The notes below the pieces were generated by a model that made no database searches, was not told the DNA's origin, and was given only the letters and a program-made list of their open reading frames with translations. Source: Candidatus Bathyarchaeota archaeon (GTDB lineage Archaea > Thermoproteota > Bathyarchaeia > JAPDIZ01). Taken from it: DNA of 64,000 nt. Both the position numbers and the translations under genes were made by a program. This document shows positions 3,030 to 9,129 of this stretch, piece by piece; positions within the stretch are counted from its first letter, which is position 1, and each line of letters opens with the position of its first letter. The stretch covers positions 69,181-133,180 of the forward strand of contig JAPDIZ010000003.1 of NCBI GenBank assembly GCA_029259355.1, written 5' to 3'.

Positions 3030-3686
3030 GTGCTAGAAGAGGGGGCTAAGCTCTTTGGATACGTTCGGGTGGGCGAAAGAGCCTACATAGGGCCTTACAC
3101 GCGCGTATACGGGCCAGCCACAATCGGCGACGATTCCCGCATAGAAGAGTTTTGCCTCATCGGCGTAGAAGCTGCGCGAAAAACATCTTCTAGAGAGAAT
3201 GAGCTCGAAACCTCGATAGGCGAAAAAGTCGTCATCCGCTCACACACAGTAGTTTATGCTGGTTGCCGAATCGATAGTGGGTGCTTCGTGGGGCACAACG
3301 CACTCCTCAGAGAGCATACGGTGCTGGGGAGGAACGTGGTTGTGGGAACAGCTTCCGTCCTAGAGGGCTATTGCTCAGTAGGCGACGAAACCGTTATGCA
3401 GTCTCTTGTATACGTCTGCCGCCACGCAGCCATAGGAAGAGGAGTCTTCATAGGCCCAAACACCGTTTTCCTCAACGACAAGCATCCCCCCTCCAAAAGG
3501 CTAGAAGCTCCGGTAGTGGAGGATGAAGCAGTCATTGGGGGAAACTGCACCATACTCCCAAACGTCAGAGTGGGGAGGGGAGCTTTGGTGGGCGCAGGCT
3601 CTGTCGTAACCAAAGATGTCCCTCCCTACGTGATCGTAGCGGGAAACCCCGCCAAGCCCTTGGGCAAAAGAGAGCTACCTACCTAA
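3030..3686 (+). CDS. hexapeptide-repeat (left-handed beta-helix) acyl/acetyltransferase
   Basis: Repeated [LIV]-G-x-x-x-x hexapeptide pattern across 218 aa (IGDDSRI, VGHNALL, IGGNCTI, VGAGSVV). Confidence 0.7.
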   Translation: MLEEGAKLFGYVRVGERAYIGPYTRVYGPATIGDDSRIEEFCLIGVEAARKTSSRENELETSIGEKVVIRSHTVVYAGCRIDSGCFVGHNALLREHTVLGRNVVVGTASVLEGYCSVGDETVMQSLVYVCRHAAIGRGVFIGPNTVFLNDKHPPSKRLEAPVVEDEAVIGGNCTILPNVRVGRGALVGAGSVVTKDVPPYVIVAGNPAKPLGKRELPT

Positions 3687-5986: not shown

Positions 5987-6110
5987 TGGTAGCCCGGGGG
6001 AGATTCGAACTCCCGTCGGCGGGTCCAAAGCCCGCCATGCTTGGCCGTTTTGCGGCTTTTGCCTCTACACTCGGCGGGAGGCGTGCCCTCCACCGGGCTG
6101 CTCCCGGGCT
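5987..6110 (-). tRNA. tRNA gene, over-long (about 113-124 nt), probably intron-containing; candidate anticodon arm GCGGG-CUUUGGA-CCCGC would give anticodon UUG (Gln), isotype tentative
   Basis: Minus-strand RNA ends ...GGGAG-UUCGAAU-CUCCC-CCGGGCU-A-CCA (T-arm, 3' acceptor, discriminator, encoded CCA). Complementary 5' acceptor AGCCCGG occurs twice (6104-6110 and 6093-6099). Perfect 5-7-5 hairpin at 6019-6035. Extra sequence between acceptor and anticodon arm implies an intron at a non-canonical position. Confidence 0.6.
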
Positions 6111-8960: not shown

Positions 8961-9129
8961 TGGTGGGGCCGGAGGGATTTGAACCCCCGACATGCGGGTT
9001 GCTCTAGCTCCAGAAGTCAGTCATCCCCACAGGGTCTTCTTACCCGCATTCACGAGCCTCTGGAGCCCTTAACGAGGCTTCGCGCATTTCGCGAAGCCCT
9101 GCCGTCATACCTGGCTAGACCACGGCCCC
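8961..9129 (-). tRNA. tRNA gene, about 169 nt, with large intron(s); isotype not assigned
   Basis: Minus-strand RNA begins GGGGCCG-UG-GUCUAGCCAGGUAUGAC (acceptor, U8, D-arm with AGCCAGG loop) and ends GGGGG-UUCAAAU-CCCUC-CGGCCCC-A-CCA; about 115 nt lie between D-arm and T-arm, including a strong 8-bp hairpin GGCUUCGC/GCGAAGCC. Confidence 0.6.

Follow-up and report, generated by a model that had tools for sequence, protein, structure and literature searches.

What kind of tRNA, if any, can be made from a gene whose 5′ part is far too long and in which the same acceptor-strand sequence occurs twice? The question is raised by positions 5987–6110 of a 64,000-nucleotide stretch of DNA (the window) of a Candidatus Bathyarchaeota archaeon, taken from a contig of a metagenome-assembled genome (MAG; European Nucleotide Archive ERZ25515408 NODE_30). 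We conclude that window positions 6099..5987 on the minus strand very probably constitute a functional tRNA-Gln(UUG) gene carrying two non-canonical introns of the bulge–helix–bulge (BHB) type, located between tRNA positions 10/11 and 15/16. The first intron is accompanied by a copy of the 5′ acceptor strand in the putative leader, and this coupling appears to be a robust new observation with a plausible mechanism.

The minus-strand read of 6110..5987 is AGCCCGGGAGC-AGCCCGGUGG-AGGGCACGCCUCCCGCCGAG-UGUAG-AGGCAAAAGCCGCAAAA-CGGCCAAGCAUGGCGGGCUUUGGACCCGCCGACGGGAGUUCGAAUCUCCCCCGGGCUACCA. All landmarks on which the initial annotation based an over-long tRNA gene are present, in the reverse complement: the T-arm GGGAG-UUCGAAU-CUCCC (6015..5999), the 3′ acceptor strand CCGGGCU (5998..5992), the discriminator A (5991), the encoded CCA (5990..5987) and the anticodon hairpin GGCGGG-CUUUGGA-CCCGCC, whose anticodon UUG corresponds to glutamine. 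The gene was thus recognized correctly, and its strand has to be corrected to minus. Its 5′ part is indeed over-long and its D-arm interrupted; the 40–60 extra nucleotides proposed earlier exist, but they are composed of introns of 20 and 17 nt plus an 11-nt leader, and the introns separate three exons of 10, 5 and 61 nt. The sequence AGCCCGG is present twice, and only the downstream copy (6099..6093) continues with U8-G9-G10, as in 87 uninterrupted metagenomic tRNA-Gln genes conforming to the pattern AGCCCGGTGGTGTAG-N-GGCCAAGCAT. The upstream copy, beginning at 6110, is followed by GAG and lacks U8. The gene therefore starts at A6099, and the 5′ acceptor candidate formerly placed at 6110 is the leader copy. 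The elements of the locus, together with those of a second interrupted tRNA gene of the window, are listed in the table.

Table. Elements of the tRNA-Gln locus and of the tRNA-Trp gene in the window
Feature	Position	Strand	Basis and remarks
TATA-like promoter box CTTAAAAA	6134..6141	-	Position and consensus only; identical in L022 though flanking bases differ
Leader copy AGCCCGG of the 5′ acceptor strand (putative decoy)	6104..6110	-	Perfect complement of the 3′ acceptor strand 5998..5992
Leader spacer GAGC	6100..6103	-	Spacer length 0 to 11 nt among homologues
Exon 1, tRNA positions 1–10, AGCCCGGUGG	6090..6099	-	Same as the 5′ end of the 87 uninterrupted tRNA-Gln genes; 7/7 pairs with the 3′ acceptor strand
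Intron 1, 20 nt, between positions 10/11, AGGGCACGCCUCCCGCCGAG	6070..6089	-	BHB motif; same-site insert type at 30 loci
Exon 2, positions 11–15, UGUAG, 5-nt micro-exon	6065..6069	-	Equals the invariant TGTAG of homologues; unchanged in L022
Intron 2, 17 nt, between positions 15/16, AGGCAAAAGCCGCAAAA	6048..6064	-	Relaxed BHB; analogue at the same site in L060
Exon 3, positions 16–76 (rest of D-arm, anticodon arm with UUG, variable loop, T-arm, 3′ acceptor, A73, encoded CCA)	5987..6047	-	Rfam partial match; ARAGORN cloverleaf once spliced; 0 differences from L022
tRNA-Trp(CCA), two introns	8961..9129	-	BHB scan; spliced 77-nt product is a canonical tRNA-Trp cloverleaf
tRNA-Trp intron, 32 nt, at 28/29 (non-canonical)	9069..9100	-	BHB scan
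tRNA-Trp intron, 60 nt, at canonical 37/38	9000..9059	-	BHB scan

Standard software does not report this gene. ARAGORN gave no call at the tRNA-Gln locus with default settings, with -i, or with -i and lowered thresholds (the last of which gave more than 120 spurious calls), and Rfam at its gathering threshold returned no match in the whole window. On the genomic sequence, the tRNA model RF00005 aligns the 3′ two-thirds of the gene with 26.7 bits against a gathering score of 29; a sub-threshold score is expected of a gene interrupted outside 37/38 and is no evidence against the spliced product. The initial annotation had offered the failure of tRNA finders to report a tRNA here as grounds for discarding the idea, yet the silence of ARAGORN and Rfam is misleading because these finders cannot model non-canonical introns, and relying on it would have led to wrongful rejection of the gene.

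Removal of the two inserts changes the outcome. What is left without them is a 76-mer that ARAGORN calls as tRNA-Gln(ttg), folded as a canonical cloverleaf, whereas the unspliced sequence and both forms with a single insert removed are rejected; of the one or two introns outside 37/38 that had been suspected, two were therefore found, each with a relaxed BHB. The spliced product has a 7-bp acceptor stem, a 4-bp D-stem, G18G19, a 5-bp anticodon stem with a 7-nt loop containing U33, a 5-bp T-stem with the loop UUCGAAU, and the discriminator. Without CCA, it is identical at 71 of 73 positions to an uninterrupted gene at locus L123, both differences forming a compensatory 26:44 pair, and at 70 of 73 positions to uninterrupted genes at L066 and L105; these three genes score 57.6–61.2 bits with the Rfam tRNA model, above the same gathering score. 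The gene is neither split nor permuted, since a single promoter precedes the three exons, which follow one another contiguously and in colinear order on the same strand.

The same architecture is found in independent assemblies (L001, L022 and L023). The close relative ERZ26872902 NODE_14 (L022) allows comparison across the syntenic intergenic region: 22 of 301 flank positions differ from the window, as against 2 of 113 in the gene, and both of the latter fall within the introns (2/37), leaving all 76 exon positions unchanged. At 6085, C>A gives the inner helix of intron 1 a further A-U pair, and the other change (6050 A>G) hits the mismatched or bulged A of intron 2. In our judgement, neither an assembly artefact nor a pseudogene undergoing decay can explain exons that stay constant between diverged flanks.

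Intron 1 possesses the more complete splice motif. Its central helix is formed by C5G6G7U8 (6095..6092) and GCCG (6075..6072) with four of four pairs, and is bounded by the 3-nt bulges GGA and AGU, with cuts after the second base, and by the inner helix GGG/CCC. A strict BHB scan requiring a fully paired central helix recovers this intron, and random inserts of the same composition at its junction produce such geometry with p = 0.0023. Inserts of 17–28 nt exactly at 10/11, with the ends AGG[A/G]...[U/C]CCGCCGAN, occur at 30 metagenomic loci; the AT-rich members of this family come from Nitrososphaeraceae. In an alignment of 22 homologues, pairing of the proposed BHB holds in 98.3% of cells, compared with 20–72% when the partners are slid; the central helix is 100% paired, and all four inner-helix pairs show compensatory double changes. 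At three loci (L071, L085 and L115) the 10/11 intron coexists with at least one further insert, located within the anticodon arm or after it, and L124 has an insert after the anticodon loop.

The second intron is less regular. Its central helix, formed with GCAA (6053..6050), comprises a G10×A mismatch followed by U11-A, G12-C and U13·G, that is three of four pairs; the bulges AGA and AAC have 3 nt each, and the inner hairpin is GGC-AAAA-GCC. The strict scan found nothing for this D-loop insert. Random inserts of the same composition reach its geometry with p = 7e-5, or 3.4e-4 over 16 neighbouring junction pairs. Splicing at 15/16 yields the D-loop AGCGGCCAA, with C at position 16, where 87 intronless homologues have 52 C, 32 T and 3 A. 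A 30-nt insert at the same site in L060 possesses a perfect GUGU/ACAU central helix. This junction is preferred because it is the only one that carries a BHB, because the L060 insert occupies the same site and because C is the commonest base there. An alternative junction, GAGG|CC (A16), was rejected, as none of the four registers open to it offers a BHB. ARAGORN is too permissive for judging this junction, as it accepted 337 of 406 arbitrary deletions, and by sequence the exact junction is less certain than that of intron 1. The L060 gene (2101–2231) contains a further insert before the T-arm, and ARAGORN makes no call there.

In both introns the intron-side helix (h′) has 3 bp (GGG/CCC and GGC/GCC, at least 2 bp being required), and both BHBs are best classified as relaxed HBh′-type motifs rather than strict hBHBh′. 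Relaxed HBh′ motifs have been reported for archaea of the Thaumarchaeota–Aigarchaeota–Crenarchaeota–Korarchaeota (TACK) group with (alpha-beta)2 endonucleases (PMC7714728, PMC5829648), and such enzymes are assigned mainly to this group, which takes in Bathyarchaeota (PMC7714728).

The BHB of intron 1 uses acceptor bases C5–U8 and hence competes with the 7-bp GC-rich acceptor stem. In this context the upstream AGCCCGG, located 4 nt from the true 5′ end, attracts attention. The hexamer GCCCGG is found no more than 25 nt upstream in 25 of 27 genes with the 10/11 intron and in one of 89 without it; with duplicates removed, the counts are 23/25 for intron-bearing and 1/86 for intronless genes (Fisher p = 2e-20), and per exon lineage 11/11 and 1/46 (p = 7e-11). 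Five lineages with identical anticodon arms hold both gene forms, and there the copy is found with the intron-bearing form. Apart from GCCCGG, which is kept, leaders of the AT-rich loci of Nitrososphaeraceae cannot be aligned with those of the GC-rich loci. Two interrupted genes whose BHBs do not involve the acceptor stem, the tRNA-Trp gene of the window and L060, have no acceptor-strand copy upstream. No other isotype with a nearby second copy of its own acceptor strand was found in the set searched, which consists almost entirely of tRNA-Gln loci.

The copy also occupies a constant place relative to the promoter. In 15 of 24 intron-bearing loci, a TATA-like box starts 30–33 nt upstream of it irrespective of the spacer, and where the intron is absent it is tRNA +1 that lies at this distance from the box (median 32); as the automated TATA call is noisy in AT-rich leaders, we rely on the unambiguous loci. 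In the window the box starts 32 nt upstream of the G of the copy, and transcription is predicted to begin at about A6110, the first base of the copy.

One intronless tRNA-Gln gene (L035, Joint Genome Institute contig OCOJ01034934.1, 7863–7888, minus strand), the exons of which match an intron-bearing gene at L129, has AGCCCGGTG about 25 nt upstream, directly before the gene. This may represent a leader copy remaining after precise intron loss, which fits either a folding role of the copy or its being a relic.

Folding with ViennaRNA indicates what the copy could do. In the window, it pairs with the 3′ acceptor strand in both the minimum free energy (MFE) and the centroid structure. Enforcing the intron 1 BHB instead of the true acceptor stem costs +4.7 kcal/mol with the native leader; deleting the leader or scrambling the copy raises this to +14.4 kcal/mol. 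For the 22 homologues, the BHB free-energy difference (ddG) averages +0.5 kcal/mol when the leaders are native, shuffling them raises the mean to +6.1, and in the BHB-enforced optimum 5–7 of the seven 3′ acceptor-strand bases pair with the leader. In the nearest-neighbour model, the copy would thus cut the cost of the splice-competent fold by about 6–10 kcal/mol. RNAalifold applied to sequences from leader to 3′ end is uninformative for leader pairing, the copy being invariant and its spacing variable. The same program predicts another pairing (alignment A1, columns 57–60 with 85–88; window ~6075–6072 with ~6047–6044), in which GCCG of intron 1 binds the D-loop YGGC when the true acceptor stem forms. 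Two mutually exclusive partners of GCCG, C5–U8 or the D-loop, suggest a possible conformational switch in the precursor.

We hypothesize that the leader copy serves as a folding decoy for the 3′ acceptor strand, making the splice-competent fold accessible; we give this about an even chance. Transcription from about A6110, 30 nt downstream of the TATA-like box according to the spacing, would produce an 11-nt leader whose AGCCCGG is predicted by folding to pair with the 3′ acceptor strand. The true C5–U8 would thereby become free for GCCG at the 3′ end of intron 1, giving the 4-bp central helix seen in sequence and covariation; otherwise the acceptor stem would lock C5–U8 and no central helix could form. 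With the decoy, the splice-competent and the cloverleaf-like folds would be about equal in energy. The D-stem bases 10–13 and intron 2 may form the second, relaxed BHB. By analogy with established archaeal tRNA splicing, the endonuclease would then cut the four 3-nt bulges, and a ligase would join the exons of 10, 5 and 61 nt. With the intron gone, the true acceptor stem could form and RNase P could take off the leader, giving a canonical 76-nt tRNA with encoded CCA. Since the decoy would be removed only after splicing, splicing should precede 5′ maturation. The 10/11 intron might then be seen as a two-part device, an intron plus a transcribed leader copy, conserved between Nitrososphaeraceae and Bathyarchaeia-type lineages, a proposal for and against which we hold the odds to be balanced.

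Several points weigh against this picture or parts of it. Every processing step, from the transcription start through splicing to the mature ends, is deduced from sequence. Strict hBHBh′ motifs have an exon-side helix (h) of at least 2 Watson–Crick pairs (PMC7714728), and here it has 1 bp in intron 1 (C4-G12) and 0 bp in intron 2, whose central helix contains the G×A mismatch and is itself of relaxed form; a broad-specificity endonuclease, of the (alpha-beta)2 or epsilon2 type, would therefore be required. Even with the leader, the exact BHB fold stays 8 kcal/mol above the window MFE in the nearest-neighbour model, and the copy and the true 5′ strand could instead pair with each other through CCGG/CCGG as a small hairpin. 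Both the copy and the 3′ acceptor strand are invariant in the homologue set, which was selected by a pattern that fixes the acceptor, so their pairing has no covariation test. GGC is repeated around intron 2, and a cloverleaf just as valid results if 6061..6045 is excised (leaving A16), though that junction has no BHB. There is no orthologue at 17 syntenic Bathyarchaeia loci, and conservation thus means one close relative plus non-syntenic metagenomic homologues.

The most serious rival reading of the leader copy denies it any folding role: it would be a passive relic or hitch-hiker of the origin or spread of the 10/11 intron, having arisen for instance when the 5′ end of the gene was partly duplicated, or as part of a promoter–leader–exon 1–intron block inherited or replaced as a unit. 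Copy and intron lie within 10–20 nt of each other, and linkage alone would give some association; the intronless L035 gene with its upstream AGCCCGGTG resembles a remnant after intron loss, and the missing covariation test leaves room for such a view. A relic would hardly explain why GCCCGG is kept in 11 of 11 lineages whose leaders are otherwise unalignable, why its distance to the TATA box is constant and its distance to the tRNA variable, why this very element brings the BHB conformer within energetic reach, or why tRNA-Trp and L060, with BHBs away from the acceptor stem, have none. We consider a passive copy possible but rather unlikely. Far less probable is that the upstream AGCCCGG (6110..6104) is the true 5′ exon of a leaderless transcript and the downstream one part of an additional intron. 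Although the predicted start coincides with the upstream copy, as it does with tRNA +1 in intronless genes, and removal of 6103..6093 gives an identical mature sequence, no BHB can be drawn for an intron of 8–11 nt between the copies; furthermore, A1 is missing from Nitrososphaeraceae-type copies (cGCCCGG or uGCCCGG), so that positions 1 and 72 would be mismatched, and spacers of only 0–1 nt occur. This reading can hardly be sustained.

Returning to the two-intron gene as such, its being a decaying pseudogene or partial duplicate of a tRNA-Gln gene with inserts of junk would agree with the silence of standard finders, and the duplicated AGCCCGG could point to rearrangement. However, none of the 76 exon positions changed while about 7% of the flanks did (about five changes would be expected), the cloverleaf is perfect once spliced, the promoter is conserved in L022, splice motifs stand at the exact insert junctions, and the same design is kept across many lineages, so we assign this explanation only a minute probability. 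A more limited objection is that only intron 1 is spliced through a BHB, with the D-loop insert cut at 6061..6045 (D-loop AGAGGCCAA) or retained as an extra D-loop hairpin. GGC on both sides allows four registers with the same A16 product, which ARAGORN accepts and which has precedent in the three intronless homologues with A at this position, and GCCG-CAAAA-CGGC would make a stable local hairpin if retained. No A16 register has BHB-like geometry, whereas the 15/16 junction does (p <= 3.4e-4); L060 has a perfect BHB exactly at 15/16, and C16 is the commonest state (52/87). ARAGORN rejects the tRNA with the insert kept, and a D-loop of 26 nt is beyond the range known for cytoplasmic tRNAs. Cutting elsewhere or retention is thus improbable, and splicing of both introns remains the preferred reading.

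Non-canonical or multiple tRNA introns with relaxed BHBs are known from Thermoproteales, Thaumarchaeota, Korarchaeota, Aigarchaeota and ARMAN lineages (PMC4090602, PMC4033280, PMC3218864, PMC3239211). In Thermoproteales (Pyrobaculum, Thermofilum and Caldivirga), up to three short introns per gene occupy “seemingly random” non-canonical sites (PMC4033280, PMC4090602, PMC8450103). The gene described here resembles these in its D-arm introns, relaxed BHBs, tiny internal exons and invisibility to standard finders; it differs in its host and in the leader element, which is not described for Thermoproteales genes in the literature searched. The comparison with Thermoprotei made in the initial annotation is therefore apt for the kind of introns, though not for the organism, whose neighbouring proteins are 51–55% identical to those of Bathyarchaeia MAGs. 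Specific descriptions of non-canonical tRNA introns in Bathyarchaeia were not found in the literature searched, and the two-intron tRNA-Gln is a known phenomenon in a new host.

The 10/11 introns of Nitrososphaeraceae type share with intron 1 the sequence family, the site, the BHB and the leader copy; the window intron differs in being GC-rich, in belonging to a different class and in being joined by a second intron at 15/16. tRNAscan-SE 2.0 contains a Thaumarchaeota-specific BHB model, with 107 non-canonical introns reported, and extends candidates by 60 nt of flank to catch end-proximal introns, without mention of a leader copy (PMC8450103). In split and permuted tRNA genes (Nanoarchaeum, Caldivirga and Thermofilum), leader and trailer sequences contribute to the endonuclease substrate (PMC4090602, PMC3218864). 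There, as proposed for the window gene, sequence outside the mature tRNA is needed for the structure that the endonuclease recognizes. In those genes, however, leader and trailer pair into the BHB itself and the endonuclease cuts both off, while the window gene is contiguous and colinear, its BHB consists of exon 1 and intron, the proposed task of the leader is confined to covering the 3′ acceptor strand, and this leader would be removed by RNase P. We found no mention of a leader acceptor copy in the reviews and primary papers of one literature library, which is not proof of novelty.

Access of the endonuclease to BHBs incompatible with the cloverleaf has so far been treated as a property of the enzyme, namely its broad specificity. 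Here the tRNA-Gln RNA itself seems to carry a compensating element, tied to one intron family across distant lineages. If the decoy hypothesis is true, it would define a previously unrecognized class of cis-acting helpers of archaeal tRNA splicing and a general rule for the persistence of introns beside the acceptor stem. It would also provide a testable rule for which intron positions need helpers and predict an obligatory processing order. The signature of a TATA box, about 30 nt and an acceptor copy could then improve detection of 5′-proximal introns. Independently of the decoy, multi-intron tRNA genes are extended to a lineage for which no published description was found, and bacterial-style tRNA finders under-count tRNAs in Bathyarchaeia MAGs, as both tRNAs of the 64-kb window are invisible or mistyped.

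Only two places in the whole window look like a tRNA 3′ end, 5987 and 8961; each is on the minus strand and follows an over-long 5′ part. The second belongs to the tRNA-Trp(CCA) gene, located 3 kb from tRNA-Gln, which ARAGORN -i mistakes for a tRNA-Gln whose intron has 74 nt and whose variable arm is long. Every difference between this gene and its counterpart in L022 lies inside the introns. Absence of an acceptor copy upstream is as expected if copies are needed only for acceptor-proximal introns. With two introns in each of the two tRNA genes looked at, introns may be frequent in this genome.

Euryarchaeal tRNA-Trp introns carry a box C/D guide. Like them, the window gene has an intron with box-like elements, GGAUGA followed by CUGA in the 60-nt intron, along with eight nucleotides, UCUGGAGC, that are complementary to its anticodon loop GCUCCAGA; unlike them, it has poor boxes at non-canonical spacing and a second intron at 28/29. 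A variable stretch of the 60-nt intron reads CCCUGUGGGG in the window and CCCGAUAGGGG in L022. Rfam gave no meaningful match and no box C/D guide hit in the tRNA-Trp region.

By protein similarity, the host is assigned to a deep-branching Bathyarchaeia lineage outside Thermoproteales. The best named relatives of a DHH protein and of FeoB encoded near the tRNA genes are from Bathyarchaeia/Bathyarchaeota MAGs, with only 51–55% identity, and the neighbouring proteins are not most similar to Thermoproteales genomes; these taxonomy calls follow the names of best-hit proteins. Of 5.8 billion clustered proteins, a single one matches FeoB with 96% identity and no other exceeds 55%, an isolated position that indicates a sparsely sampled Bathyarchaeia family. 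The 96% FeoB match belongs to the one close relative found, represented by L022 and L023.

Genes between window positions 3675 and 10100 encode, in order, a DHH phosphoesterase, a ThiN-domain protein, a DUF445-like protein, tRNA-Gln, a FeoA/DtxR-like protein, FeoB, tRNA-Trp, a GDT1-family protein and a Trm112-like protein. This order is identical around both tRNAs in L022, and it is not kept around DHH homologues at 17 reference-genome loci, nearly all from archaeal MAGs, mostly Bathyarchaeia or other Thermoproteota. A tRNA-Gln orthologue with this acceptor is absent from the same syntenic loci, where only two ARAGORN-detectable tRNAs occur. In the window, the FeoB stop codon (8958) and the tRNA-Trp 3′ end (8961), which belong to opposite strands, are 3 nt apart.

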